Under the pieces are notes generated by a model. That model did not search any database, was not told the DNA's origin, and was given only the letters and a program-made list of their open reading frames with translations. A DNA stretch of 32,000 nt from Methanothermobacter marburgensis str. Marburg (GTDB taxonomy: Archaea; Methanobacteriota; Methanobacteria; Methanobacteriales; Methanothermobacteraceae), in NCBI RefSeq assembly GCF_000145295.1, contig NC_014408.1:1290001-1322000 (forward strand). The letters are read 5' to 3'. Positions 4,726 through 27,850 of this stretch are shown one piece after another (within the stretch, counting starts at the first letter, position 1; each line of letters begins with the position of its first letter). The translations under genes and the position numbers were made by a program.

Positions 4726-5561
4726 TGCCGCAGCTTACTCTCAATGATCTCGGCGCTCTTACCGCACCTTTCGAGTATTATATTGTTTATGCTCTTCTCA
4801 AGCATGCTGGGCTTGAATGCCACCACAAGGTTTGCCTCAGGGTCATCAACCGTCCTCACGCTGACAACACCATCCGATTCCATGAGGGCCTCGACCACAT
4901 CATCAACGTCTCCATCAACCCTTATCCTCATGATGGCGTACCCCCAGTTTGTCATCTTCTTTATGAGTTCAATCTTGTCTATCTCATCGTCTATCCTGCC
5001 TGTTATGTAGGAGTAGAGGGGCATGAGGATTATGGCAACTGCCAGTCCAAGTATTGTGGTTATCAGTGCAACATAGATCCCCTCAGCCATTGCAGCGGGG
5101 TCAGCGTTAACACCTAGGGCCCTGAATGTGTACCATATCCCTATGACGGTCCCTATAAGACCCAGCATTGGGGCGACCTCTATTATTGTCCTCAGCGTCC
5201 CAAGACCCTTTGTCATGTTGCTCATCTCAACAATGAAAACACGCTCCATCGCATCCTCAACCTCTGAACGGTTCCTGTAGCCTATCTTGAGGGCCTCTGA
5301 TATTATCTTTGATACTGGATTCTGGTACTGCCCTATCTCCCTGAGTGCCTCAAGTGCTCCGCCCTTCTCCATGGATTCATTGACCTTACCTATTATCTGG
5401 GGTGTGCTAACACGTGAAATCTTTCTTAGGTAGTGTATCTTCTCAATGGACGTGATAAAACCATAGACACCTGTGATTGCTATTATGTATGTTATTACAC
5501 CGCCGCTGCGGAACATTTCAAGTACTGTGCCAAAGAAGTTGAAAACTGGTTCGAGAAACAT
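4722..5561 (-). CDS. MotA/TolQ/ExbB-family proton channel protein with an extra C-terminal soluble domain
   Basis: 279 aa with three TM segments in ExbB-like spacing (APMLGLIGTVIGI..., EGIYVALITTILGLAVAI). About 85 residues follow the last TM, which canonical ExbB lacks. AGGTGAGG Shine-Dalgarno upstream. Confidence 0.78.
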   Translation of the reverse strand: MFLEPVFNFFGTVLEMFRSGGVITYIIAITGVYGFITSIEKIHYLRKISRVSTPQIIGKVNESMEKGGALEALREIGQYQNPVSKIISEALKIGYRNRSEVEDAMERVFIVEMSNMTKGLGTLRTIIEVAPMLGLIGTVIGIWYTFRALGVNADPAAMAEGIYVALITTILGLAVAIILMPLYSYITGRIDDEIDKIELIKKMTNWGYAIMRIRVDGDVDDVVEALMESDGVVSVRTVDDPEANLVVAFKPSMLEKSINNIILERCGKSAEIIESKLRQ

Positions 5562-5597
5562 TTTTCTGCCTCACCTGATGGGTATTTACCGGAGAGG

Positions 5598-5612
5598 ATA
5601 TATTTAAAAATA
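5598..5612 (-). promoter_or_regulatory. TATA-box-like element upstream of the exbB-like gene
   Basis: The minus strand reads TATTTTTAAATATAT about 40 nt upstream of the ATG at 5561. It sits in the only sizeable gap (78 nt) of the minus-strand gene array. Confidence 0.4.
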
Positions 5613-5639
5613 GTGGTCTGGCTGTATTAAATAATTAAA

Positions 5640-6263
5640 TCAGTTTTTCCTCCTCTTCTGGACCGTGGCCCATGACTTCCTCACGAAGTCCGGGAGTTCA
5701 TCGTAGCTGAATGATTCCAGAAAAGCCCTTGTGCGTGGGTCGCTGGGATAGCCAGAGCCGATGTCCCCAAGTTTCCTGTTCCTCTTCTGTATCCTCTCTA
5801 TTTCAAGGTCCCTTTCGACCTTGGCTATTATTGACGCTGCTGCAACGGGGTAATACTTTGCATCTGCACCGTGCTCGGCCTTCACCTCGATGTCGCCGAA
5901 ATGAGACCTTATCTCCTCAGTCAGCCTCTCTGGTTTAACATCCACCGAATCTATTATGACGGAGTCCGGCTGTGCCTCTGCTATTATCCTCTTTATTGCT
6001 ATCTTCTCTATCTCATTAAGGTTGAAGCCCTTCTCACGCATCCTGTCAATATCCGATGCAGATATCTTAACCGTGAACACCCTTGAGATCCTTCTTATCT
6101 TCCGGGCGAGAAATTTTCTCCTCTCGGGTGTGAGCTTCTTTGAGTCCCTTATACCCATTTTCCGGAGTATCGAGAACTTCCTCTCAGGGACCATAACACC
6201 CGCCACGACAAGGGGGCCTATTACAGGACCCCTCCCCGCCTCATCAATTCCAAGAACCTTCAT
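5640..6263 (-). CDS. rnhB: Ribonuclease HII
   Basis: 207 aa. N-terminus MKVLGIDEAGRGPVIGPLVVAGV and SASIIAKVERD are typical of RNase HII. Confidence 0.92.
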   Translation of the reverse strand: MKVLGIDEAGRGPVIGPLVVAGVMVPERKFSILRKMGIRDSKKLTPERRKFLARKIRRISRVFTVKISASDIDRMREKGFNLNEIEKIAIKRIIAEAQPDSVIIDSVDVKPERLTEEIRSHFGDIEVKAEHGADAKYYPVAAASIIAKVERDLEIERIQKRNRKLGDIGSGYPSDPRTRAFLESFSYDELPDFVRKSWATVQKRRKN

Positions 6264-6281: not shown

Positions 6282-7355
6282 TTATTTCATTGCCTTGAGC
6301 CTTACCTCAGGTTCAAGTGCCCTTGGTTCTGCAGCAACTATTGCGGCTCCCTTGGCAACCACTGTCATGGGGTCATCTGATATCTCGGCAGGAATGCCAA
6401 CCTCATCCAGTATCCTCTCCCTGAGGCCCCTGAGCTGTGAGGTTCCACCCACAACAACAGTCTTGTTGTAGACCCCTGAGATGAGTTCAGGTGAGAGCCT
6501 TTCAAGTACCGCTGCTATGGAATCCACTATACCCTTTACAACGGGCTCAGCAGCCTCTGCAACCATTTCAGAGTCAATTTCAACCTTTTTAGGTTTGTTT
6601 GTCTCCATGCATTTACCTATAACCACTGTTTTGAGGTTTTCAAGATCCTCCTTACACTTGACCATCCCAACCTCTATCTTTGCCTTCTCTGCCTCATGGA
6701 TGCCTATCTCAACATTGTACTTCTCCTTCACCAGTTCAACAAGGTTGGTGTCAATATCATCCCCGCCGACCCGGATTGTCTCAATGTCGGTTATGCCTCC
6801 AAGGGATATCACGACAATGTCACTGGAACCGGCCCCTATGTCAACAACCATGGTCCCTGACGCCTCTGCTATGGGCAGCCCGGCCCCTATGGCAGCTGCA
6901 AGGCCCTCACTTATAACCAGGACATAATTTGCCCCGGCCTTCCTTCCTATCTCCTCAACGGCATTTCTTTCAACCTCTGAGGCATCCCCTGGTATACCTA
7001 TAACTATCCTGTCAATGGACTCAGAATCTCCTGCCCCCATCTCCATTGCATATACAAGGAGGGCCTCTGCCTGTGCAACGCTCTCAATAACACCCTTCCT
7101 CAGTGGTCTCACAGCGATTATGTCCTCAGGGGTTCTTCCGAGCATCATCTTTGCCTCTTCACCCACTGCAAGGACATATGATGGGTCCTCCTTCTTGACG
7201 GCCACCACAGAGGGAATCTTGTAGATATCAAATTTATCCCCTGCTGGTTTGGCAACCACGGTGTTGAGGGTACCCAGGTCTATTCCGAGTGTATTGGTGA
7301 TTGCACTCTTCCTTTCCGGTTTCTCTTCAGATTTTTTCTTTCCAAATGAAAACAT
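6282..7355 (-). CDS. mreB: MreB-like actin-family cell-shape protein
   Basis: Motifs LGIDLGTLNTVVA, AVGEEAKMMLGRTPEDIIAVRPLRKGVI and VVDIGAGSSD. The ORF track extends it to 7394. The ATG at 7355 (MFSFGKKK) has a GGAGGAG Shine-Dalgarno 4-5 nt upstream and avoids overlapping the upstream gene, so I prefer it. Confidence 0.85.
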   Translation of the reverse strand: MFSFGKKKSEEKPERKSAITNTLGIDLGTLNTVVAKPAGDKFDIYKIPSVVAVKKEDPSYVLAVGEEAKMMLGRTPEDIIAVRPLRKGVIESVAQAEALLVYAMEMGAGDSESIDRIVIGIPGDASEVERNAVEEIGRKAGANYVLVISEGLAAAIGAGLPIAEASGTMVVDIGAGSSDIVVISLGGITDIETIRVGGDDIDTNLVELVKEKYNVEIGIHEAEKAKIEVGMVKCKEDLENLKTVVIGKCMETNKPKKVEIDSEMVAEAAEPVVKGIVDSIAAVLERLSPELISGVYNKTVVVGGTSQLRGLRERILDEVGIPAEISDDPMTVVAKGAAIVAAEPRALEPEVRLKAMK

Positions 7356-7356
7356 G

Positions 7357-7998
7357 CTACTCCTCCTCAAATATGTCTCTAAAGTCAACTGCAAATATGT
7401 TGTTGCGGGATGCTATCTCATTTATCCTCTCAACATCACCTGATTCATGAACAGATATCAGCAGTGTTACCAGGACAACGTCTGTAACCTTGAAGAGGGG
7501 GTCGATTATATTTCTTATAAATCCCGGAAGCCTCTCTGTAAGGTAGACGTCTGTCTCTATAAACCCGCTCGTTCTGTCCTCAAGGATGAAGGAAAAACCT
7601 ATTTTATTCTTTTCAGCCTCCCCTGCAAACCTTTTCATATAGTTCTCAGGGGCGACAAGAAGCACAAGGTTGGGTTCGTTCTCAACGTAATATGGGGCTA
7701 TCTTTATATAGGCCCCTCCCTTTTCCTTGCAGATAAGTGAAAGATCTCTTATTTTGTTGCTTTCGCCATAAAGCATTATTAAATCAAAGCGTTTTCTTAA
7801 AAAGGAATCCTTGATGGTAACGTGTTCCCTGAAGAGTATCTTTACAAGATCCCTTGAGGTGATTGCCTCGTAGGCCACAGAGTTGACCATTTCCTCATTA
7901 CCCGCAATCACACACCACAGCCTGTCTGAACTCTGGGCTGTTGAAACCTGTGCTGCCTTTCTGAGAACCTTTATCTTACTCTCTATCATCACCATCAC
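7357..7998 (-). CDS. Hypothetical cytoplasmic protein, translationally coupled to mreB
   Basis: 213-aa ORF with no TM segment and no family motif I recognise. Its stop (7357-7359) is 1 nt from the mreB ATG. Start uncertain (a GTG/ATG cluster at 7987-7998). Confidence 0.6.
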   Translation of the reverse strand: MMVMIESKIKVLRKAAQVSTAQSSDRLWCVIAGNEEMVNSVAYEAITSRDLVKILFREHVTIKDSFLRKRFDLIMLYGESNKIRDLSLICKEKGGAYIKIAPYYVENEPNLVLLVAPENYMKRFAGEAEKNKIGFSFILEDRTSGFIETDVYLTERLPGFIRNIIDPLFKVTDVVLVTLLISVHESGDVERINEIASRNNIFAVDFRDIFEEE

Positions 7999-8251: not shown

Positions 8252-8941
8252 GTGAATTGTGTGTTTGTTAAGGGCGTTGCAAAAAGAGCCAGTTTTCTCA
8301 TAAGTGTGGCCACCATCCCATTTCTCCTAGGCTACCACGCGGTCAGTATACTCATGTTCAGCCTCATAGCATTCATGATGCAGTTCTTCAGGGACCCTGA
8401 AAGAAATATTCCCTCTGAAGATAATATCATCGTTGCCCCCGCAGATGGTAGGCGTTTATCCGGCAAGATAGACCGTATAAAAAGGGTAGGGTCCGATTAT
8501 CCCCTCATTGACAGGATATTTCCCAATGGTGGTGAGGCTATTCTCATAAGCACCTTCATGTCACCATTTGATGTCCACGTAAACCGGGCCCCTGTTTCGG
8601 GAAGGGTGATATACACAGAGCATACTGACGGTAAATTCAGGGTTGCACGTTCACGTGTCCTCACCGAAAATGAAAGGAACCTGATCGTGATAGAAACAGA
8701 GCATGGCAATGTTGGTGTGGTGCAGATAGCAGGGTTCATTGCACGGAGGATCGTTCAGTACGTCAATGAGGGAGACTATGTTGAGCGGGGGAGCCGTATA
8801 GGTATGATAAGGTTCGGCTCAAGGGTCGACCTCATACTGCCAGAAAACTGTGAGGTGCTTGTGAAGACCGGTTCAAGGTCTGTTGCCGGGGAGACTGTTG
8901 TAGCAAGGTTCGTAAAGCCTAAATCAGACCGCAAAAATTAA
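8252..8941 (+). CDS. psd: Archaetidylserine (phosphatidylserine) decarboxylase proenzyme
   Basis: 229 aa. Motifs FFRDPERN, APADGR, FMSPFDVHVNRAP and the self-cleavage-type FGSRVD. GTG start immediately after an in-frame TAG. Confidence 0.85.
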   Translation: MNCVFVKGVAKRASFLISVATIPFLLGYHAVSILMFSLIAFMMQFFRDPERNIPSEDNIIVAPADGRRLSGKIDRIKRVGSDYPLIDRIFPNGGEAILISTFMSPFDVHVNRAPVSGRVIYTEHTDGKFRVARSRVLTENERNLIVIETEHGNVGVVQIAGFIARRIVQYVNEGDYVERGSRIGMIRFGSRVDLILPENCEVLVKTGSRSVAGETVVARFVKPKSDRKN

Positions 8942-8982
8942 TTAGTCAGACACAACCATATACAACTCTGCAGGTGGCGCTG

Positions 8983-9666
8983 ATGAATGACAAAAAAATA
9001 ACATCCTTCATATCATTACCTGATGTTTTATCGATTTTAAATGCTTCTTCAGGCTATTTTTCCATTTTAATGTCCATTCAAGGGTATTTTAGTGCTGCAT
9101 CTATTCTGATGCTTCTGGCTGTCGTTTTCGATTCACTTGATGGGTGGGTTGCACGCCGAACTGGTAGAGTTGATATTCATGGATTTGGCAAAAACATGGA
9201 CTCCCTTTCAGATGTAATCTCATTTGGTGTTGCTCCAGCCATTTTTATCTACCTAACAAGTGCCCATTTTCGATATATTAATATATTAGTAGGTCTCTTA
9301 ATAGTAATATGTGGCATACTGAGACTCTCAAGGTTCAATGTTCTCACAGGGGGTGGGAAGAACTTCACGGGACTTCCAATACCCGTGGTGGCGGTTGTTG
9401 TATCATCATTTTATCTCACAGGATTCTACAGTGAGAAGGTTGTGGGGGCAATGCTGCTCGCTGTCGGTATCCTCATGGTCAGTAGCATTGAATACCCTCG
9501 TGTGGGGGGTAAAATGGCATCTATTGCTTTCATACTCATAACAGCAGCAATTGTAACAGGCATAACTGGAATTCTCACTGTTCCCACAGCAATCATACTT
9601 TTTATGGCCACTGTGGCATACATTGCAGTGCCTATAACACCAATGAGACGTGATCTGAATGCTTGA
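8983..9666 (+). CDS. pssA: CDP-alcohol phosphatidyltransferase; archaetidylserine synthase
   Basis: Motif DSLDGWVAR-x10-GKNMDSLSD matches D-x2-DG-x2-AR...G-x3-D-x3-D. Multi-TM protein. The ORF track starts at GTG 8974. The ATG at 8983 is preceded by AGGTGG with 5-nt spacing. Confidence 0.88.
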   Translation: MNDKKITSFISLPDVLSILNASSGYFSILMSIQGYFSAASILMLLAVVFDSLDGWVARRTGRVDIHGFGKNMDSLSDVISFGVAPAIFIYLTSAHFRYINILVGLLIVICGILRLSRFNVLTGGGKNFTGLPIPVVAVVVSSFYLTGFYSEKVVGAMLLAVGILMVSSIEYPRVGGKMASIAFILITAAIVTGITGILTVPTAIILFMATVAYIAVPITPMRRDLNA

Positions 9667-10969
9667 TAAGATTAAAGGTAATGAAAAGGGGAATAAGAAT
9701 AATCCTCCTGATCTCCGGAAAAACAACAGAAAAGGTGACTCGAAAATTGGAGACAAACTCAAGGGACTTGTGGGTAAATTCGGTGGCGGTGAGGGCTCGG
9801 ATAAGAAAAAACCCAGGCCCATGCCAAAACCCCGGCCCCGGCTGAAAACCCCTGAAGAGCCAAAGGCCAGAAAAGCCCCTGAAAAACCTCTCAGGGGTGG
9901 TGAACAGCCTAAGCCCAGACTTACACCACCACCCAAACGACCTGGAGGCCCATCAGGAGGTATAGGTCGGAAAATTCCAGATGAGGACCAGAAAACCCTC
10001 GTTGGTGCCCTTGTCTTTGGTGTTATTCTAATGGTCCTTGCTGGTGCAGGCTACTACTTCTTAGTCTACCAGCCATACCAGGAGGTGCTGCAGAACGCCA
10101 AGGCCACAAAGATCGCTGAGGTGGACGCACTCTTCAAGGGCCCCCTTGCAACCGACCCCCAGAAGCAGGCCATACTTGCACAGATAGATGCCGCTGTTAC
10201 ACCCGAGGAGGCCCTGGCGGTTGATGTTGTGGGTCCCGCAACACAGTCATGGCGTACCTATCAGAACCAGCAAATAAATATAAAAAAGGACCGTGTTGGC
10301 AGGGTCATGGTTAATTACACAGATAACGACCAGCAGAAGCGTGTGATAATGAAGGTTGCTGATGCAAAGAAATTTGTGAGCCAGGCCGATGCAACCGTGC
10401 TTGCAAATACACAGATCCAGACCCCTGATACCGTTGCTGTGCCAATAATGATCACGAGACTGCAGGCGGCAGGCGGCCTTATAAGTGTGGGTAACATGGT
10501 CGACGTCTACCTCAACCAGAACGCCACCGAGAACAATACATCAGCTGCAGCATCAACACCAAGAATAAGCGGGGCTACTGTACTTGCAATTCTTAGATCC
10601 AAGGACAGCGGTACAGTGGACGCGCGCATACTAAACACTCAGCGGTTAACACTAAACACAATAACCTCACAGAGCGAAAATGAAAGAACATCATCAACAG
10701 ATGTGGAGCAGCTCCTGCGGGCGGCTGCCTCAGGTGGTCTGAATGAAGCCGAGATCAATGCTATACTCCAGAACTACGGTATAAGGCTGTCCAACTATGA
10801 GAGGTCATCAAATCTGGGAGAGCTTGATGCCAACTACCTCATAATACTCGAGGTCCCAAGGGAGGATGTCCTCTTCCTGATACAGAACATGAACAGCATC
10901 GTTCTGACTGTGCCAACACAGAACGCCCCTGACTGGATGATCAGGGAGCTTCAGAGCATATACGGCTGA
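9659..10969 (+). CDS. Bitopic membrane protein: K/P/R/G-rich disordered N-terminus, one TM, large external domain with weak CpaB/RcpC-like features
   Basis: 436 aa. Residues 1-110 are low complexity (KKPRPMPKPRPRLKTPEEPKARKAPEKP). TM at about residues 113-137. The start overlaps the pssA stop by 8 nt. Confidence 0.7.
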   Translation: MLDKIKGNEKGNKNNPPDLRKNNRKGDSKIGDKLKGLVGKFGGGEGSDKKKPRPMPKPRPRLKTPEEPKARKAPEKPLRGGEQPKPRLTPPPKRPGGPSGGIGRKIPDEDQKTLVGALVFGVILMVLAGAGYYFLVYQPYQEVLQNAKATKIAEVDALFKGPLATDPQKQAILAQIDAAVTPEEALAVDVVGPATQSWRTYQNQQINIKKDRVGRVMVNYTDNDQQKRVIMKVADAKKFVSQADATVLANTQIQTPDTVAVPIMITRLQAAGGLISVGNMVDVYLNQNATENNTSAAASTPRISGATVLAILRSKDSGTVDARILNTQRLTLNTITSQSENERTSSTDVEQLLRAAASGGLNEAEINAILQNYGIRLSNYERSSNLGELDANYLIILEVPREDVLFLIQNMNSIVLTVPTQNAPDWMIRELQSIYG

Positions 10970-11022
10970 CTAAGCCAAAAAATTTATTAAATTTTTATTT
11001 AATATTCTAGGTGGGGATGTTT

Positions 11023-11949
11023 ATGAAAAAATGGGTGTATGTTGTTATAGCTGCTGTGTTCATGCTTTCCATTCTGGGAGTCTCTGATACAGGGTCAGCT
11101 GCCAAGGAGACATGGGTTTCTGAAAAACCATCTGCAACCAGTTTCAGGTTGAAGGACCTGACCGCTGTTATAACCGTAAAGATAAAGAACAATGACAACA
11201 ACGTCCAGTACTTCAAGATAGGGCAGGTATACCAGGGAAGCCTTTCAGAGAACAGTACAATTAAATGGCTCATCCAGTGGACGAATCCAGCGGCGGTTAA
11301 AATGGTCAAGTCAAGGACGCCTGAACTGGGGGGTGACTACGGCTGGAAGGTGAAACCTGGGGAGACAAAAACAGTGTCATTTGGCCTCAGGGCCACGGGG
11401 GATATGGGTGAGATACCCAGTTACATCGTTAATGTTGAGTCAGATAACAGCAATTACTGGCCACTTATAAATGAGCCTGGCCTCATGTCCTCATGGTTCA
11501 TGCCCAATGAGATAGAGGTCCTAAACCCATCACTGGATCTCAGATACTGGAAGGGGACCTTTGGGTTCACTCTGATCAACATCGATGAAGAGAAGGTTTC
11601 AGGTATCGTGAGGGCCCCCATTGCCCCTGCAAACTCAAAACTAGTGTACAGTTCACCCAAGGCATTTGTGGATGATGACCTCTTTGTGAGCACACAGGTT
11701 GCTGCATGGGATGTCACAATGGACCCGGAGACCTCACAGAGGTTCGTATACACCTACGAATGGCCCGCTAAGGTAAGCGGAGGTAACGGTTCAACCAGTG
11801 GTGGAGGCTATTACCCGCCAGGCACTCTTCAGGGGACAACCGGTTCATCATCTGTTCCAGGTGCTAAGACAGGTGCCCCCTACGGTCCACTGGTGATAGG
11901 TGTGCTTGTGACTGCAGCCGCAGTTGCCTACACAAAGATCATACGTTAA
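11023..11949 (+). CDS. Secreted surface protein with a C-terminal sortase-type sorting signal
   Basis: Signal peptide MKKWVYVVIAAVFMLSILGVSDTGSAA. G/S/T-rich linker. C-terminus SSVPGAKTG-APYGPLVIGVLVTAAAVAY-TKIIR. The ORF track starts at GTG 11011. The ATG at 11023 has better spacing to AGGTGGGG. Confidence 0.75.
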   Translation: MKKWVYVVIAAVFMLSILGVSDTGSAAKETWVSEKPSATSFRLKDLTAVITVKIKNNDNNVQYFKIGQVYQGSLSENSTIKWLIQWTNPAAVKMVKSRTPELGGDYGWKVKPGETKTVSFGLRATGDMGEIPSYIVNVESDNSNYWPLINEPGLMSSWFMPNEIEVLNPSLDLRYWKGTFGFTLINIDEEKVSGIVRAPIAPANSKLVYSSPKAFVDDDLFVSTQVAAWDVTMDPETSQRFVYTYEWPAKVSGGNGSTSGGGYYPPGTLQGTTGSSSVPGAKTGAPYGPLVIGVLVTAAAVAYTKIIR

Positions 11950-11970: not shown

Positions 11971-12705
11971 ATGGGGACATTCATGAGGCTGGCAACTTTT
12001 CTGATAATTGCAGGCATGTTCATAGTGTCGCTCTACGCCCTTCTTGAGGTGAGTTTCTATTCCTCACAGGTAATTGTTCAGAACCCTGACATCAGGGCTC
12101 CGGTCATTGAGATACCATCCATTAACCTTGAGGAGACCATCAACAACCGATCCGTTTTCTATGGAGTCTACCATGAACCCATGTCCTACCTCCCTGGTAA
12201 CAGAACCGTCATACTCTTCGGACACAGGACACTCTACGGCTCACCCTTCCTGAACCTTGATAAGTTGAAGCCGGGGGATGAGGTCAACCTTAACTGGCCA
12301 GGGGTTGGCCTTGCGACTTACAGGGTTAATCGATCATTCATCGTGCCAGCATCCTACCAGATATCCGTGAATCAGGGGGCGAGGCTATTTCTCATCACAT
12401 GCCACCCCCTTGGATCAACAAGGGAGAGACTGATAGTTGAGTGTAAACTTGAAGGCATAAAGCCCTACCAGAGAAACCTCAAGGTTGAGAACCCCAAGAG
12501 GTACTATGCGCTACTCATAATACTCGGATTCCTTGGGGCTGGTCTTCTGATCACCAGACTCTATCCTGTTTATGAAGATAGGAGACTTCTCCTTGCAGCG
12601 GTAATCAGCCTCACACTCTTCCTGCTGCTGGGTTACATCTTCCCGATCCCCCCAGAGTTCATATCAGAGAAACTCATTGAATTCAACAGCATATTTGGAC
12701 TTTAG
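11971..12705 (+). CDS. Sortase-family cysteine transpeptidase
   Basis: 244 aa with an N-terminal TM anchor. Sortase core: IEIPSINLEE..., PGNRTVILFGHR (His85), LFLITCHP (Cys144, codon 12400-12402) and STRERLIV (Arg151/153). Two further TM segments at the C-terminus. Confidence 0.82.
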   Translation: MGTFMRLATFLIIAGMFIVSLYALLEVSFYSSQVIVQNPDIRAPVIEIPSINLEETINNRSVFYGVYHEPMSYLPGNRTVILFGHRTLYGSPFLNLDKLKPGDEVNLNWPGVGLATYRVNRSFIVPASYQISVNQGARLFLITCHPLGSTRERLIVECKLEGIKPYQRNLKVENPKRYYALLIILGFLGAGLLITRLYPVYEDRRLLLAAVISLTLFLLLGYIFPIPPEFISEKLIEFNSIFGL

Positions 12706-12725
12706 TGAAGCTTAAGGTGTTTAAA

Positions 12726-13091
12726 ATGAGAGAACCTGGAGAAGAGTACTTTTCAAATCTGTCAGACAGGGAAAGGGCCATATTTGAGGGCGGCATAAGT
12801 ATGGGTGCCCTCTTCCACCAGTTCGTTGGAACCCCTGTTAACCTTGAAACCGTTGAAGTCCTTGAGGGTGCAATTGCCGAATCAATAAAGCTCCAGCCGG
12901 CAATCAGGGATGCAGAGGTCCATATAGACAGAGGCATGGTAAGGGAGGCTGCTGGAGAATTTGGTTATGTCTCCCTCACCGGTGAGATGCTAAGGGTGAG
13001 GTTAGACGTTGAATATGGTTCATCAAGGATAACGATCTGCCTCGAGTACCTCGATGAACTGAGGTATCCCCTCATGTATGTGAAGGATTGA
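12726..13091 (+). CDS. mptD: Archaeal dihydroneopterin aldolase-like protein (MptD family)
   Basis: About 121 aa. The ERAIFEGGISMGALFHQFVGTPV pattern is as I remember it for the archaeal DHNA/MJ0408 family. The ORF track starts at GTG 12705. The ATG at 12726 follows AAGGTG with 6-nt spacing. Confidence 0.55.
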   Translation: MREPGEEYFSNLSDRERAIFEGGISMGALFHQFVGTPVNLETVEVLEGAIAESIKLQPAIRDAEVHIDRGMVREAAGEFGYVSLTGEMLRVRLDVEYGSSRITICLEYLDELRYPLMYVKD

Positions 13092-17235: not shown

Positions 17236-17745
17236 CTACTGCTCCAGGGCATCTATGAGTTCATCGAGCCATCTGAGCCATTCTGTGTACTTCATGCTGG
17301 GGTATGAGATGTCTGCATTTGGATGCATGTACCTGCAGAGGGTCACTGTTTTAAGGTGTGGTGCAAAGGCCTTGAGGGTTGAAAGGCCCTGTGAACCTAT
17401 GTAATATGGGACACCTATGAAGCATACAAGGTCATAGTTGCCATTTCCATCGAAGCCCTCCCAGTCAGGATTTTTGAGGTTGTTTACAAGTTCGATTACC
17501 CCTATTATGTTTTTTCTTTCCAGTTTAGTTAACCTGAGACCTGATCCTCCGGTTAGGGCAACCTCCATTTTCCCTTTTTTTATTATTTTAACTATCCTAT
17601 CCACTATATCTTGTGGAAGGTCATTTAACAGCGACCCTACCACCATGAGTGGTCTTTCAGACTTTTTTATGGCCGATGCAACCATTTCAGGGGGCATGAC
17701 GGTTGCATTCCTTATTGATGTTAGAGCTGGGTTCCATGCGGTCAT
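17236..17745 (-). CDS. cdhB: CO dehydrogenase/acetyl-CoA decarbonylase-synthase complex, epsilon subunit
   Basis: 169 aa. NPDWEGFDGNGNYDLV and the C-terminal LDELIDAL match the CdhB pattern (DPNWPGLDGNGNYD in Methanosarcina, from memory). Confidence 0.85.
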   Translation of the reverse strand: MTAWNPALTSIRNATVMPPEMVASAIKKSERPLMVVGSLLNDLPQDIVDRIVKIIKKGKMEVALTGGSGLRLTKLERKNIIGVIELVNNLKNPDWEGFDGNGNYDLVCFIGVPYYIGSQGLSTLKAFAPHLKTVTLCRYMHPNADISYPSMKYTEWLRWLDELIDALEQ

Positions 17746-17805: not shown

Positions 17806-20180
17806 TTGATGGCATATGGTGACAGCATGCCCAGAGCATCAAAGGATATAATAAATGTTAAGGGATTTCACCTTGAATTCGGTGAAATTGACGAATACCT
17901 CAAAAGAAAATCATGTGAGAGTAAGAGGGTATCTGTGGATTACGATGAGCTTAGAAAATGGGACCTTAATCTCCTATCCTATTTCAAGCCATTCTATGCA
18001 CCCCTCTGTGACCTATGCTGCATGTGCACCTACGGCAAATGCGACCTTCTAGGTAAGAAGGGTGCCTGCGGTATAAACCTCGAGAAACAGCAGGCAAGGG
18101 AGGCCCTATCAACTGCAGTTATAGGTGCATCGGCCCATGCAGCCCATGCAAGGCACCTCGTTGACACCCTTATCGAGAAAAAGCCCACATCAGAACTCCA
18201 TTATGATAGTTCAATAGACATAAAGACACCAATATCCACCACAGTAACCGGTATAGAGCCTGAAACACCAGAGGACCTCGACAGGATAATGACATACATA
18301 GAACGGGAGCTCACAAATCTCATTGCCTCAGTTCATACCGGCCAGGAGGCTGAAGTAACCGATTTCGAGTCAAAGGCCCTCCATGCTGGTATGTTAGATA
18401 CCATGGCGCTTGAACTGGCCGATATAGCACAGATAAACCAGTATGGACTCCCCACAGGTAAAGCAGATACACACATGCTGGAAATTGGAATGGACGTTAT
18501 AGACAGCACAAAACCTGTCATACTCTGCATAGGACACAACATAGCGCCCTCAGCTGAGATAATAGACTACGCAGAGGATATCGGTGCTGAGGAGGAAATA
18601 GAGATCTGTGGCCTCTGCTGCACAGCCATGGAGATGGGAAGGTACTCAAAATCATCGAAAATAGTTGGGCCCATATCAAGGCAGCTCACCTTCCTCAGAT
18701 CAGGCATTCCAGATGTGGTTGTACTGGATGAACAGTGCATACGCTCAGATGTATATGAGGTGTGCGGTGAAATGGGGATGGTTGTGATCGCAACAGGTGA
18801 CAAGTGCAGTATGGGCCTTGAGGATATGAGTGAAGAGAACCCCTACAGGATAATAAACCGGATACTGCAGGAAAAAATACCAGGGGTTCTTATAAAGGAT
18901 GGAAAAAAAGGTTGCCATGGTCGCTGTGAACCTTGCACTTCAGCTTACCCGTGGCAGGGACCCCGAAACATCAGGCCGTTTCAGGGTGAACTGTGTGAGG
19001 TGCTCGCCCTGTGATTCAAACTGCACGCCATCCAGGAAACCCGAAAAACAGAAAGATATTGACCTGAATTCAGTGCTGGGATACTGTGAACTCTGTGGGG
19101 AATGCAACCGTGTCTGTCCGGCAATGCTGCCCATCATGGAGGCAATAGATGATGCAAAGAATGGTGGCCTCCGCGCCATAGGGACCCTCTATGAAAGCTG
19201 CAGTGGCTGCGGCCGGTGCATGGAGGTATGCCCTGTGGGAGTGCCAATCCTGGATATCATAAGAGAATCACGTGGAGAAACCCCTGAAAGATTCCTCATA
19301 AGGGCCGGCAGGGGGCCGGTACAAGATATAGAAATAAGGAGGGTTGGTGCCCCTATAGTTTTCGGTGATATACCCGGCGTCATATCACTTGCAGGATGCT
19401 CCAACTACCCCTCAGGTGAAAGGGATGTGCAGATAATCGCTGAGGAGTTTCTTAAGAGGGGCTATATAGTACTTGCAGCAGGATGTGCGGCCATGGATAT
19501 AGCCCTCACACATGATGATGAGGGCAGGACACTCTATGAAAAATACCCTGGAGACTTCGACAGGGGAGGGCTCCTCAACCTCGGCCCATGTGTCGGGAAC
19601 TCCCATGCCATTGGAAGCGCCATAAAGATAGCCAATATATTTGCAAGGGTGCCCATGAAGGGGAACGCCGTTGAAATAGCAGATTACATACTAAACCGGA
19701 TAGGTGTCTGTGTGATAGGATGGGGTGCCATGTCACAGAAGGCATTTGCAATAGTCACAGGTGCAAACAGGTGGGGGTATACCTGCAGTTCTTGGGCCCC
19801 ACGCATCAAAGTATCGCAGGCTTTACCTGGGTGAATCCAGCCCAAGGGTGATAAGGGACAGGGCTGATGACAGCATTGTCCCCTCTGAACCGGCGCCACC
19901 CCACCTAACCTACGCGGCTGAGAGTATCAATGAATGCCTTGTAATGGCTTCAAAGATGTGCATAAGACCCAACGACACACCCCGAGGGCGAATGGTGAAG
20001 CTCAGCAACTACGTTGACCTGCACCTGAAATATTACGGCGATCTACCTGCGGATATTGACCTCTTCGTAAGGAATGAGAAGGAGATCCCCTACAAGCATA
20101 AAGATGATATAATGGAGATACTGAGGGAAAAGAACTGGAAGCCACGTGACCCGGTAAAGGAGCCCACGATCATCAGGTGA
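17806..20180 (+). pseudogene. cdhA: CO dehydrogenase alpha subunit (CdhA) interrupted by two +1 frame changes, at an A7 run (18903-18909) and a G5 run (19773-19777)
   Basis: Three consecutive ORFs in frames 1, 2 and 3 (17806-19014, 18899-19834, 19761-20180) together encode about 790 aa. Features: the N-terminal Cys cluster PLCDLCCMCTYGKCDLLGKKGACGI, an internal 2x[4Fe-4S] insert ([24 protein letters not shown]) and a C-terminal CODH domain. Removing one A and one G restores [12 protein letters not shown] and [13 protein letters not shown]. The exact start is unclear (TTG 17806, ATG 17809 or ATG 17827). Confidence 0.75.
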
Positions 20181-20572: not shown

Positions 20573-20655
20573 ATGGTCCTCTTCACAGCCCCACTGGACT
20601 TAAATGATAGGGGGACCATGTCATCGCAAACATCACTGAATGGTCCTCTTCACAG
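20559..20655. repeat. 30-bp direct repeat with 1 mismatch (20559-20588 and 20626-20655) covering the stops of two convergent genes
   Basis: gcaaacaCcactgaatggtcctcttcacag versus gcaaacaTcactgaatggtcctcttcacag. Confidence 0.9.
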
Positions 20656-21718
20656 TGACGGTATGTGCCATTACAAGGGCGGATATTATTATATAGGTGA
20701 GCAGGGCCGATGAGTTAAAGGATCTGTTGAATATGAAAAGGCCCACCAGGCTCTGTGAGAGGAACGCCGCCAGTGAACCTATGAGCAGGGCCTCCCTTCC
20801 CAGGTACATTCTGCTCCCATTAAGCCTCTGCTCCTGATATTTTTTAAGAACCCTGAGTCCAGAGAAGGTGACTATCATGACCCATGCAAGGAGGAAGAGC
20901 AGGCCAAAGAAACCTGCATCAAATGCCACCGCAAATATCCCTGGCAGCATGTAGTCTATGTAGTCCTTCTTTACAACCAGAACACCATAGAATATGTGGT
21001 AGGGGAGGCCAAGGTTCTGTATCATGGTAACTGGAAGTGTGATGTAACCATCGGCGCCACCAAGGCAGGCTGATTTCCAGTAGCATGACCCCTGGACATG
21101 GCCCCAGAATGTGGTATTCTTAAGTACCAGCGAAAGGCTTGGGATGGTGTTCTCCTCAAGCCTTGTGATCCTGAGCATGGGGCTTAGAACACTTTTATGG
21201 AGAACCTTTGATAGGAACTCCATGAGTGCAAATGCTCCTGCACCTGCAAGGACGAATGATAGAACCGATTTTTTTGTTATCCTTGTGCTCCTCCTGAAAC
21301 TCTTTGACATGAGCAAGTACCCGAAAGCCCACCCAAGGAGCCATAAAACCAGGAAGGAACGGTGCATGAGTCCTCCTGCAATTGCTATTATGAAGAAGAG
21401 AAGCAGGGAGAGTTTTTTAACCGATGTAGACCTTATACCCGCCTCTGTGAGGAGATTTGATGATGCCACCATTGTAACCCAGAATAGAACCGCAAATGGG
21501 CCAAAGGGGTGTGTGAACTCGTGGTGTGAGAGGAATGGTAGGAGGAGAAAGGCGGCATCAAATGAGAATATTAGAGCCAGTATAACCGTTATTACCGTTC
21601 CAAGAAACATCACAAGACTCAGAGGTACTGCAACCACATTGAAGAGGAGTATTATGCCAACGTGGATTATCACTGCAACTTCAAGTATGAACTGAAGGTT
21701 ATTCTGAGCTATAAACAT
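20633..21718 (-). CDS. Polytopic integral membrane protein (about 10 TM) with one large external loop; function unknown
   Basis: 361-aa hydrophobic ORF. A loop of about 70 aa contains two Cys (GSCYWKSACLGG). There is a faint resemblance to polymerase/ligase-type (Wzy/SEDS-like) membrane proteins, not enough for a call. Confidence 0.65.
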   Translation of the reverse strand: MFIAQNNLQFILEVAVIIHVGIILLFNVVAVPLSLVMFLGTVITVILALIFSFDAAFLLLPFLSHHEFTHPFGPFAVLFWVTMVASSNLLTEAGIRSTSVKKLSLLLFFIIAIAGGLMHRSFLVLWLLGWAFGYLLMSKSFRRSTRITKKSVLSFVLAGAGAFALMEFLSKVLHKSVLSPMLRITRLEENTIPSLSLVLKNTTFWGHVQGSCYWKSACLGGADGYITLPVTMIQNLGLPYHIFYGVLVVKKDYIDYMLPGIFAVAFDAGFFGLLFLLAWVMIVTFSGLRVLKKYQEQRLNGSRMYLGREALLIGSLAAFLSQSLVGLFIFNRSFNSSALLTYIIISALVMAHTVTVKRTIQ

Positions 21719-21858: not shown

Positions 21859-22719
21859 TTATGGGGACGTCATCCCCACAATGTAGTCATAGATGCTCTG
21901 GAGAAATGCATAGATCTGATCAAGGATACCTGAGCCCCCAAACTGCTGACTCACACTTTCAAGCCTTTGTTTAAATTCCGTGAGGTTTCCCTGGGCCCTC
22001 TGGGATGCTGAAACCGAATCTGCAACCTGCTGAACCTGATTTTCTGTTAGGTTGATATTCATCTGCTGTGAAACATCAACGACAATGTTCTTTATCTCAT
22101 CAGGGTTCTGAAGGTTCTGATCCTGTGTTCTGTTCTTGACCTCATCAAAGAGCTGTGCCACCTCACCACCGGTTGCATTGGTTTCATTCACAAGCCTGCT
22201 CTGGAGGTAGATCTCCTCAACAGATGCCTTCTTGGCCTCTTCAGGTATTTTTTCACCCACAGCAACCTCATATGACTTCAGGACACCTGCAAGGGCTGCC
22301 TCCCCTGAGGCAGGTACCGGGGATGTTACAACCACGTAGCCGCGGTCAATACCAGATGACCTTAGGGCACTGGCATACATCTCAGGGGTCACGACCCTTA
22401 TTTTACTGGTATCCACAGAAACCTTGATTCCCTCTGAGTATGAGAGGTCAACCATGGCACAGGAGAGTATCTGTGATGGCGAATATACACGACCCGTAAC
22501 TCCCCTGGAGACCTCATTTACCTCAGATGCTGTTACAATCTTTATATTTGCGCTATTGATATCCTTATCGGTCTTTGACTTGAAGTAGTCCATCACCGCG
22601 TTCCGGTATGATGGGTTGCTGTCTGTTGCCTCCCCGAGTGTCACAGAGAACCCTGAGACCGCGAACACCGGTGCGGTTACCATGAATGCAACCAAAAGCG
22701 CAATGATAAGTCGCCTCAT
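21859..22719 (-). CDS. Secreted DUF1002-like protein
   Basis: 286 aa with signal peptide MRRLIIALLVAFMVTAPVFA. The central VTPEMYASALRSSGIDRGYVVVTSPVPASGEAALAGVLKSYE matches my memory of the DUF1002 (YpuA-like) core. Q/N-rich C-terminal half. Confidence 0.65.
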   Translation of the reverse strand: MRRLIIALLVAFMVTAPVFAVSGFSVTLGEATDSNPSYRNAVMDYFKSKTDKDINSANIKIVTASEVNEVSRGVTGRVYSPSQILSCAMVDLSYSEGIKVSVDTSKIRVVTPEMYASALRSSGIDRGYVVVTSPVPASGEAALAGVLKSYEVAVGEKIPEEAKKASVEEIYLQSRLVNETNATGGEVAQLFDEVKNRTQDQNLQNPDEIKNIVVDVSQQMNINLTENQVQQVADSVSASQRAQGNLTEFKQRLESVSQQFGGSGILDQIYAFLQSIYDYIVGMTSP

Positions 22720-27249: not shown

Positions 27250-27327
<78 letters not shown>

Positions 27328-27334
27328 TCCTAAG

Positions 27335-27409
<75 letters not shown>

Positions 27410-27419
27410 TCCAAAAAGC

Positions 27420-27428
27420 TTAAATATA
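27420..27428 (+). promoter_or_regulatory. TATA box (AAAAAGC-TTAAATATA) for tRNA-Tyr
   Basis: Ends 25 nt upstream of tRNA-Tyr position 1 (27454). Preceded by an A-rich BRE-like run. Confidence 0.55.
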
Positions 27429-27453
27429 CATCACCCCCAATGATGTATATCAA

Positions 27454-27529
<76 letters not shown>

Positions 27530-27653
27530 CACCAACAGTGTGAAAGTTTTAAATACTAGAAAAATAGAACTCATAACATGTATGTCATACAGCAATAGTA
27601 AAGTATATAAGCAGGTAACGAGAGAACACAGTAATGCTCTCATTCTGAAGACC

Positions 27654-27729
<76 letters not shown>

Positions 27730-27733
27730 CTTC

Positions 27734-27808
<75 letters not shown>

Positions 27809-27850
27809 CTATCTAATTTTACGGTGACTTTTTATCTGGAGGACTAAATT

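Follow-up and report, generated by a model that had tools for sequence, protein, structure and literature searches.

The class GN ('marine') sortases (TIGR03784) are encoded beside their single LPXTG-type target, and the class E sortases have LAXTG substrates in Actinobacteria. The class C pilus sortases carry a hydrophobic C-terminal anchor besides the N-terminal one, and SrtA of S. aureus acts on many proteins with a tripartite LPXTG signal, forming a cysteine thioacyl intermediate at the Thr-Gly bond and transferring the protein to an amine of a wall precursor, lipid II. In the archaeon Haloferax, the ArtA/PGF-CTERM system also removes a C-terminal helix that follows a short motif, after which the surface protein is re-anchored; however, ArtA is unrelated to the sortases in sequence and fold (PMC6098224). 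This paper focuses on a sortase gene of the archaeon Methanothermobacter marburgensis str. Marburg and on the gene directly upstream of it, which codes for a protein designated P312. Both genes are located in a stretch of 32,000 nucleotides (nt) of contig NC_014408.1 (positions 1,290,001 to 1,322,000), which was analysed as a whole and is called the window. The first of these open reading frames (ORFs) encodes a genuine sortase with an intact and conserved His/Cys/Arg triad, and P312 is, from comparisons of sequences, a strong candidate for the dedicated substrate of this enzyme. The explanation that appears to us somewhat more probable than not is that an active, membrane-embedded sortase anchors P312 covalently to pseudomurein by means of the tripartite signal at the C-terminus of P312.

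The two genes contain the following features (residue numbers of the sortase are those of the longest ORF; pLDDT is the per-residue confidence of the AlphaFold model).

11011..11949, + strand: P312, the predicted dedicated substrate, 312 amino acids (aa), an exported surface protein of a family without a name
11767..11847, + strand: hypervariable Ser/Thr/Gly/Asn-rich linker of P312, residues 253-279 (top-residue frequency 0.36; pLDDT <50)
11848..11889, + strand: putative sorting motif of P312, SSVPGAKTGAPYGP, residues 280-293, conserved and matched by no known sorting-signal model
11869..11874, + strand: codons ACA GGT of Thr287-Gly288, the putative scissile bond by analogy with LPXT|G
11890..11946, + strand: hydrophobic helix and basic tail of the signal, LVIGVLVTAAAVAYTKIIR (from hydropathy and the AlphaFold helix 292-311)
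11971..12705, + strand: sortase gene, 244 aa as the longest ORF (from PF04203, the AlphaFold model and 174 orthologues)
11986..12054, + strand: N-terminal signal-anchor helix of the sortase, the first transmembrane (TM) helix TM1, about residues 6-28 (hydropathy peak 7-25; AlphaFold helix 7-31)
12091..12486, + strand: extracellular sortase beta-barrel, about residues 41-172 (Pfam 41-160; AlphaFold strands 34-172; Foldseek)
12223..12225, + strand: codon CAC of the catalytic His85 in LFGHR, within the invariant motif G-H-R-T, aligned to the GHR of SrtC2 (8t28)
12400..12402, + strand: codon TGC of the catalytic Cys144 in LITCHP, within the invariant T-C-x-P-x-G-S, paired with the TLxTC cysteine in alignments to solved sortases
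12427..12429, + strand: codon AGA of the catalytic Arg153, invariant in orthologues and aligned to the catalytic Arg of solved sortases
12502..12642, + strand: two extra C-terminal TM helices, TM2 and TM3, about residues 178-197 and 205-224 (hydropathy 179-197 and 206-224; AlphaFold 178-197 and 201-223)
12643..12702, + strand: conserved extracellular C-terminal tail F-P-I-P-P-x-F-I-S... (P225 nearly invariant; AlphaFold helix 228-242)

The sortase reached 64.3 bits with the Pfam family PF04203, for which the gathering score is 26.6 (E=1.2e-17), and the match covers residues 41-160. The generic sortase model TIGR01076 gave 31.5 for the window protein at a cut-off of 39.35, which is passed by the orthologues P0034 and P0232. 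An earlier note on this DNA, made from the letters alone, had described the ORF as a sortase with an N-terminal anchor and a beta-barrel core, and both the profile search and an AlphaFold model based on 18 orthologues (mean pLDDT 84) bear out this layout. The residues His85 and Cys144, which the note had named as catalytic, the latter with the codon listed above, were paired with the catalytic His and Cys of solved sortases in pairwise alignments, and they are kept in 172/172 and 174/174 distinct orthologues, respectively, the count for His85 leaving aside two of the 174 orthologues that are incomplete at this position. For the arginine, the note had offered positions 151 and 153. Arg153 pairs with the catalytic Arg of the solved enzymes and is invariant (174/174), whereas Arg151 of the window protein is not conserved and is mostly replaced by Lys. 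The best sequence match in the PDB was the class C structure 8t28 (E=5e-7). On the protein level, a sortase has been detected in the proteome of M. thermautotrophicus, in a paper that is silent on which of the two annotated sortases was found (PMC6528648).

Since the sortase orthologues begin at the residue equivalent to Met5, the true start codon is probably ATG 11983 (MRLATF...) and not 11971, which would result in a protein of 240 aa and shift the residue numbers by -4. Two divergent members of the three-helix family lack the catalytic cysteine: in P0233 it is replaced by Ala (LISANEIG), and in P0238 by Ser (LITSHPIG), the latter protein being fused at its N-terminus to a DnaJ-like J domain and a zinc-ribbon-like segment. 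These two proteins may be pseudo-enzymes or Ser-based variants.

The AlphaFold model of the sortase consists of a helix (7-31), the strands of the beta-barrel (34-172), two further helices (178-197 and 201-223) and a last helix (228-242). When compared with the PDB by Foldseek, the eight-stranded barrel matched sortases of the classes E, C, A, D and F near-equally, with E-values of about 4e-9 to 8e-8 and a TM-score to the target of 0.5-0.75. The two hydrophobic segments that the earlier note had seen behind the catalytic domain are real by hydropathy and in the model, and both helices are present in 174/174 distinct orthologues. The predicted cytoplasmic loop joining them contains a conserved Y-P-x-x-E-D-[KR], and Y198, P199, D203 and L218 are invariant or nearly so. 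A lid motif of the type DP[FWY] was not found in the sortase sequence, and the model leaves only about 12 residues between TM1 and the first barrel strand. The predicted topology comprises a cytoplasmic N-terminus, TM1, a lid-less catalytic barrel outside and TM2/TM3 pinning the barrel to the membrane surface. As the tethers on either side of the barrel are very short, the active site would be placed at the membrane surface, near a motif that lies a few residues from its own helix, and the extra helices TM2/TM3 may serve to bind a lipid-linked acceptor or the helix of the substrate. The three-helix architecture defines the family and is apparently a new element.

P312 was matched by no family of Pfam or NCBIfam, and all its homologues are labelled 'hypothetical protein'. 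The homologues, among them WP_010876660 as the orthologue in M. thermautotrophicus, occur only in the sortase-bearing archaeal group. As judged from the orthologues, the likely start of P312 is ATG 11023 (MKKW...), which is preceded by GGTGGGG. The AlphaFold model of P312, based on 25 sequences, consists of an N-terminal signal helix, two beta-sandwich domains (pLDDT >90), a disordered region (255-290) and a C-terminal helix (292-311). A Foldseek search with this model against the PDB yielded generic beta-sandwich or carbohydrate-binding-module-like domains with a best E-value of 0.009 and no pilin or adhesin fold, and sequence searches of the PDB with P312 and with the DUF515 protein encoded upstream of it gave no matches. 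The linker between the folded domains and the motif is a candidate wall-spanning segment.

The C-terminus of P312 in the window reads SSVPGAKTGAPYGPLVIGVLVTAAAVAYTKIIR. Together with the N-terminal signal sequence, it completes a tripartite layout with the motif at 280-293, a helix at 294-308 and the basic tail KIIR. In the family, the consensus of the motif is [ST]-[VIL]-P-[TS]-x-x-T-G-[VLA]-P-[YFW]-G-L-[FL], followed by about 13 hydrophobic residues and a terminal Y-[AST]-[KR]-F-x-R, in which the Tyr at -6, the Lys or Arg at -4 and the terminal Arg are conserved. The core pattern P-x3-[TA]-G-x-P was fitted by 172/185 P312 sequences, representing 138 distinct tails; these tails were preselected on the pattern, and its fixed positions are thus invariant by construction. 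Among them, 133 have Thr and 5 have Ala directly before the Gly, the aromatic position is Tyr, Phe or Trp in 131, and the following motif Gly is present in 121. An alignment of 25 sequences, to which no such filter had been applied, showed G288 and P290 to be invariant, P283 to be conserved to at least 90%, and position 287 to be Thr in at least 90% and otherwise Ala. The mean top-residue frequency was 0.36 for the linker, 0.70 for the motif, 0.61 for the helix and 0.72 for the tail, compared to 0.66-0.71 for the folded domains; all three parts of the signal are thus about as conserved as the folded part of the protein. By analogy with known sortase signals, ...SVPTKETGVPYGL... and SSVPTKETGVPYGL are candidate recognition peptides for the enzyme.

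Four representative tails of P312 were compared to the curated signal models of Pfam and NCBIfam (LPXTG anchor, PGF-CTERM, PEP-CTERM and others), and none matched even at E<=10. An assignment of the signal to a known CTERM type, like PGF-CTERM, PEP-CTERM or a related one, was rejected, since no CTERM model matches. With no such match and an adjacent enzyme of the sortase fold, the pair also differs from the archaeosortase and exosortase systems.

In a few metagenome-assembled loci, the P312 gene is broken up by frameshifts or has no VPTxxTG core (L077 at 5012-5962, L056 at 5041-5952, L010, L026 and L036); the copy in L077 ends with ...SSDPPASNNGGIPFGLL... These broken copies may be assembly errors or genuine decay.

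The gene for P312 lies directly upstream of the sortase gene in 73/80 genome loci, with a median gap of 36 nt. The pairing was also approached in the reverse direction, by scanning metagenome DNA with the back-translated P-T-x-x-T-G-x-P-[YF]-G-L alone. Of the 115 matches, 77 were chance matches without helix or basic tail, and 38 were complete signals with a stop codon about 30 residues further on. A sortase gene was located just downstream of 37 of these 38, the sole exception having 79 nt of contig left, and all complete signals preceded by 100 aa or more of sequence (30/30) were found on P312 homologues. This suggested that the signal, the P312 family and the sortase travel together, and that this form of the motif is exclusive to one protein family. 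No other ORF of the window carries a C-terminus of the P312 type. A profile of the 44-residue signal retrieved only three short gene fragments, tail ends of the P312 family, from a set of 5.8 billion proteins, and this search was thus not suited to listing other substrates. The earlier note had regarded substrate, nucleophile and role as open questions; for the first of these, a strong candidate is now available in the product of the upstream gene.

In the mechanism that we propose, P312 would be exported by the Sec pathway and held in the membrane beside the sortase by the helix of its signal. By analogy with the LPXT|G sortases, Cys144, helped by His85 and Arg153, would attack the bond between Thr287 and Gly288, releasing the helix and leaving a thioacyl intermediate. 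An amine would then resolve the intermediate, most likely a free amino group on a stem peptide of pseudomurein or on its lipid-linked precursor, and P312 would be left covalently fixed to the wall. The pseudomurein amine is favoured because the phyletic pattern of the sortase follows that wall and nothing else, and because P312 has a stalk-like linker, as in wall-anchored bacterial proteins. The proposed thioacyl at Thr|Gly, the wall-precursor amine and the tripartite signal are shared with SrtA of S. aureus. However, the wall here consists of pseudomurein, the spacing of the motif is different, the enzyme is polytopic, and apparently one substrate family is served instead of many. The class GN pairs are similar in having one sortase gene beside one substrate gene and a tripartite signal on essentially one family; here, in contrast, the score with the class GN model is 29.7 bits at a cut-off of 158, the organism is a pseudomurein archaeon, the enzyme has two extra helices, and the signal is P-x-x-x-T-G and not LPXTG.

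Several points weigh against anchoring of P312 by the sortase. The signal departs from LPXTG in having three residues between Pro and Thr-Gly, so that the pentapeptide L-P-x-T-G is not present, and in a few orthologues Ser stands for the Pro. The residues past the proposed cut (G-x-P-[YFW]-G-L, and Gly and Tyr in the helix) are more conserved than usual for sorting peptides that are discarded, which would also fit a permanent membrane anchor. Furthermore, the whole region, including the unrelated genes for 2-oxoglutarate:ferredoxin oxidoreductase (Kor), is syntenic in almost all of the 80 loci. The adjacency of P312 and sortase is thus weak evidence when taken alone, and the case depends mainly on the reverse scan and on the signal. 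The sortase is also kept without an adjacent P312 in the loci L013, L015, L047 and L079 of Methanobacteriaceae, in the divergent locus L082, in M. smithii and in M. fervidus. In the four Methanobacteriaceae loci only a short gap separates the DUF515 gene from the sortase gene, and in the divergent lineage and in M. smithii (there with consecutive protein accessions) the DUF515 gene is directly followed by the sortase gene; in M. fervidus, the sortase gene is located elsewhere, among glycosyltransferase genes. P312 is therefore not the sole reason for the presence of the sortase, and another substrate or role is to be expected in these organisms. Finally, the cleavage of P312, the scissile bond at Thr287|Gly288, the acceptor and any binding role of TM2/TM3 are all inferred.

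Part of this evidence would agree with P312 being a plain C-tail-anchored protein that is not processed, with a conserved juxtamembrane segment, while the sortase acts elsewhere, for example on LPxTG-like adhesins of Methanobrevibacter. The unusual conservation of the helix and of the residues past the putative cut, the motif that is neither LPXTG nor matched by a sorting-signal model, and the persistence of the sortase without a P312 neighbour in several lineages fit this explanation, as do the LPxTG-like proteins noted in M. ruminantium and M. smithii (PMC2812497). However, M. thermautotrophicus was reported to contain two sortases and no LPxTG protein (PMC2812497), the scan that started from the motif recovered a sortase beside every complete signal that could be tested, and the signal is found on one protein family only. 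A conserved Thr-Gly shortly before a helix and a basic tail is, moreover, a hallmark of sortase signals. An unprocessed P312 is on balance unlikely, with a small chance left to it.

The genes around P312 and the sortase are relevant for three further explanations and were identified as follows.

6282-7394, - strand: MreB (PF06723, 348 bits)
7357-7998, - strand: 213-aa protein without a Pfam match
8252-8941, + strand: PssD, a phosphatidylserine-decarboxylase-like protein (PF02666)
8974-9666, + strand: PssA, archaetidylserine synthase (NF038087, 268 bits)
9659-10969, + strand: protein with DUF515 and RcpC/CpaB domains (PF04415, E=2.5e-24; PF16976, E=7e-8), one TM helix at 113-131
10970..11022, + strand: AT-rich spacer with the ribosome-binding site GGTGGGG ahead of P312 (AT 0.62-0.79, compared to 0.52 for the window)
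12705-13091, + strand: dihydroneopterin aldolase (PF04038)
from 13262, + strand: Kor genes (Fer4 domains in the first subunit, the others assigned by their order)

The position of pssD and pssA on the same strand and directly upstream, with the PssA gene overlapping the start of the DUF515 gene by 8 nt and the order kept in most loci, would be in agreement with lipid anchoring. Here, the sortase would cut the same signal, and the amine of archaetidylethanolamine or archaetidylserine would resolve the intermediate, so that P312 would receive a C-terminal lipid anchor and the system would converge on ArtA, PssA and PssD of Haloferax. In the latter organism, PssA and PssD are required for the processing that depends on ArtA, with archaetidylethanolamine as the proposed nucleophile (PMC7157517). 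The helices on both sides of the barrel, which keep it at the membrane surface in the AlphaFold model, would also suit a lipid acceptor. The likeness to the Haloferax system thus includes the archaeal host, the proposed removal of a C-terminal helix after a short motif with re-anchoring of the surface protein, and the nearby PssA and PssD. However, the signal of P312 matches neither PGF-CTERM nor another CTERM model, and the PssA in the window is of the housekeeping archaetidylserine synthase type, reaching 93 bits with the 'protein sorting system' model NF038086 at a cut-off of 200. In addition, the synteny extends equally to the unrelated Kor genes, the AT-rich spacer lies between the DUF515 gene and P312, the sortase of M. 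fervidus is located elsewhere in the genome, and the sortase is confined to pseudomurein archaea, to which such lipids would not be expected to be restricted. A lipid acceptor is therefore regarded as quite improbable. The spacer, as read from its base composition, is a possible separate promoter for a unit of P312 and sortase.

The DUF515 gene is the most widely conserved neighbour, located upstream of the sortase gene in 76/80 loci and adjoining it where P312 is absent. This pair is more widespread than the pair of P312 and sortase, which, together with the retention of the sortase without an adjacent P312, would be expected if the sortase primarily cross-links or remodels pseudomurein stem peptides in a complex with MreB, a coiled-coil protein and the DUF515 protein, P312 being a lineage-specific accessory or a secondary substrate. 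A bona fide MreB is encoded divergently beside the cluster. The MreB gene and the gene for the 213-aa protein are divergent from the row PssD-PssA-DUF515-P312-sortase and belong to a published 'cluster C', in which the group of the 213-aa protein is specific for pseudomurein, while MreB, present also in other archaea and in bacteria, was added for its conserved position only (PMC11915815). Pseudomurein is found together with the sortase and the coiled-coil protein, the genes of which are absent from other archaea, and a cross-linking enzyme for pseudomurein has not been demonstrated, a transglutaminase being merely nominated (PMC11915815). Against this, the authors of the pangenome study judged the cluster to be 'probably not' involved in pseudomurein synthesis (PMC11915815), and the linkage to MreB may reflect inheritance and not function, as the synteny is region-wide. 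The conserved signal on the product of the adjacent gene points instead to a protein substrate. To our knowledge, no sortase cross-links wall peptides. A sortase acting mainly on stem peptides is thus given a low probability. A role as the extracellular transpeptidase of a pseudomurein envelope machine composed of MreB, the coiled-coil protein and the DUF515 protein, in which stem peptides would serve as acceptors and perhaps also as donors, is also doubtful, with a slim chance of being correct.

The extracellular C-terminus of the DUF515/CpaB protein (10897-10966 in the window, and in L001-L082) is highly conserved, with the motif L-[TV]-V-[PS]-T-Q-x-A-P-x-W-M-x-x-E-L-x-x-I-Y-G. Its beginning, VPT[QK]x, resembles the sorting motif of P312. 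This similarity may be accidental, or the stretch may serve as a docking peptide or as another site of recognition. A literature search for MTH1028-1030, the corresponding RefSeq accessions and DUF515 yielded nothing relevant.

The same neighbour carries, with RcpC/CpaB, a domain named for pilus assembly, and this has to be considered for an explanation in which the sortase joins P312 head-to-tail, linking the Thr carboxyl to a conserved Lys, so that a covalent fibre like those of class C would arise with the RcpC/CpaB-domain protein as assembly factor. P312 has two beta-sandwich domains with the invariant Lys59 and Lys120, the sortase has C-terminal membrane helices, as in class C, and class C structures are among its best matches in the PDB. 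However, the match to the RcpC domain is weak and represents only a beta-clip module, and one structural gene is present instead of major, minor and tip pilins. A pilin or adhesin fold was not found for P312 in the Foldseek search described above, and a conserved Y-x-Y-x-W-P followed by Lys occurs in some orthologues only and is not recognisable as a pilin motif. Polymerisation of P312 is very unlikely on this evidence. The resemblance to class C that had been suggested by the earlier note from the C-terminal segments did not hold: a hydrophobic C-terminal anchor besides the N-terminal one and the match to 8t28 are shared with class C, in contrast to which the window sortase scores 34 bits at a cut-off of 160, lacks the DP[FWY] lid motif, ends with two helices and a conserved tail instead of one helix, and is not accompanied by a pilin cluster or motif.

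The NCBIfam class models gave the following scores for the window sortase.

Class E (NF033747): 35.8 bits, cut-off 160
Class C (NF033745): 34.1 bits (39-57 bits in orthologues), cut-off 160
Class D (LPxTATN-specific): 30.4 bits, cut-off 140
Class GN (TIGR03784): 29.7 bits, cut-off 158

All four scores lie far below their cut-offs, and the best-scoring class varies among the members of the family, some of which score higher with the class C or D models. By these sequence models, the archaeal sortases thus fall in none of the curated classes. The fold and the triad are shared with class E, Foldseek ranks structures of this class among its top matches, and NCBI and CDD (cd05830) name many orthologues class E. 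In contrast to class E, the signal on the adjacent gene is [ST]VP[TS]xxTG and not LAXTG, and the two C-terminal helices are not present in class E.

Relatives of the sortase were searched in the set of 5.8 billion proteins, and a profile search without filters was run over 1.84 billion cluster representatives. The first search identified 102 full-length relatives of about 240 aa. Those that bear a genus name are all from Methanothermobacter, Methanobacterium or Methanothermus, of the Methanobacteriales, the others being labelled Methanobacteriaceae or unresolved metagenome bins. In the second search, about 8 clusters matched the profile over most or all of its length, including the C-terminal helices, with at least 187 bits, and shorter matches down to about 120 bits were fragments of the archaeal family. 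Bacterial-type sortases, among 6,893 profile matches, covered the core positions of about 35-160 only, with about 90 bits or less. The extra helices are missing from the nearest bacterial proteins, whose identity in the catalytic core is 35-39%; with the class models, all below threshold, class E was best for three of the four nearest and tied with class C for the fourth. The G+C content of the sortase gene, 0.48-0.50, equals that of the neighbouring genes, and the base composition gives no sign of a recent horizontal transfer.

An orthologous group called 'Sortase E' (OG0001178) was reported for 5/5 of the archaea with pseudomurein that were examined, Methanopyrus among them, and for none of the other archaea, with homologues listed in Firmicutes and Actinobacteria (PMC11915815). 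Earlier genome papers merely count the sortases, with two in M. thermautotrophicus (PMC3087415, PMC2812497), the latter paper being also the one that reported no LPxTG protein in this organism and LPxTG-like proteins in M. ruminantium and M. smithii. That the sortase clade is confined, among archaea, to those with pseudomurein walls belongs to the anchoring explanation and is graded jointly with it as somewhat more probable than not. For two entries of Methanobacteriales type, the taxonomic labels look like binning errors, namely the locus L008, titled 'Methanomicrobiales archaeon', and the protein P0199, named 'Firmicutes bacterium ADurb.Bin419'.

The distribution also bears on a view that starts from the earlier note, in which a class C-like sortase, isolated in Methanothermobacter, would have been acquired recently from Firmicutes. 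Sortases are predominantly bacterial, the best single PDB match by sequence is of class C, and the C-terminal hydrophobic segments are present. However, more than 100 full-length orthologues are spread across the Methanobacteriales in a fixed gene order, and the sortase was also reported in Methanopyrus (PMC11915815), so that the homologue is not isolated. The native base composition, the class C score far under its cut-off with a best class that changes between members, and the full-length matches of at least 187 bits in about 8 clusters, compared to core-only matches of about 90 bits or less for bacterial-type sortases, speak against recent transfer, as do the low identity of the nearest bacterial proteins and the lean of three of these four to class E. 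This origin is considered hardly credible.

The sortase itself is already annotated and discussed, and such genes have been noted in pseudomurein methanogens for over two decades. The literature searched assigns no substrate, motif or role to the sortases of these organisms. Apparently new are the three-helix architecture, the lack of fit to any sortase class and, above all, a candidate for a dedicated substrate, with a sorting motif of a new kind. A pair of one enzyme and one substrate with a defined motif makes the role of an archaeal sortase experimentally tractable. If the proposed anchoring is correct, it would provide a first handle on extracellular chemistry at the pseudomurein wall, a route for surface display or anchoring and a possible inhibitor target in rumen and gut methanogens, and a naturally thermostable sortase with non-LPXTG recognition could serve protein ligation. 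If instead the sortase belonged to an envelope machine, it would couple proteins to the archaeal wall, or even cross-link the wall, and would represent a Cys-transpeptidase counterpart of the bacterial penicillin-binding proteins and L,D-transpeptidases for a polymer lacking known extracellular assembly enzymes.

Downstream, the dihydroneopterin aldolase gene may begin with a GTG that overlaps the stop codon TAG of the sortase gene (12703-12705); as an alternative start, an ATG is present 21 nt further downstream. The gap between the two genes has a median of 12 nt across the loci, which suggests that the sortase gene is cotranscribed with this gene of cofactor biosynthesis.

Further observations concern more distant parts of the window. 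At 17806-19834 (+ strand), a Prismane/CO-dehydrogenase domain containing a ferredoxin insert is distributed over two ORFs that overlap by about 115 nt, suggesting that a CdhA-like gene is split or carries a frameshift; on the opposite strand, a CdhB-like gene was identified (17236-17745, - strand). A DUF1002 protein (21859-22719, - strand), of a mainly Firmicutes family, adjoins a hydrophobic protein of 361 aa without a family match (20633-21718, - strand). Five tRNA genes (Thr-TGT, Pro-TGG, Tyr-GTA, Asp-GTC and Lys-TTT) were identified at 27254-27809, between pgk and the split rpoB genes.

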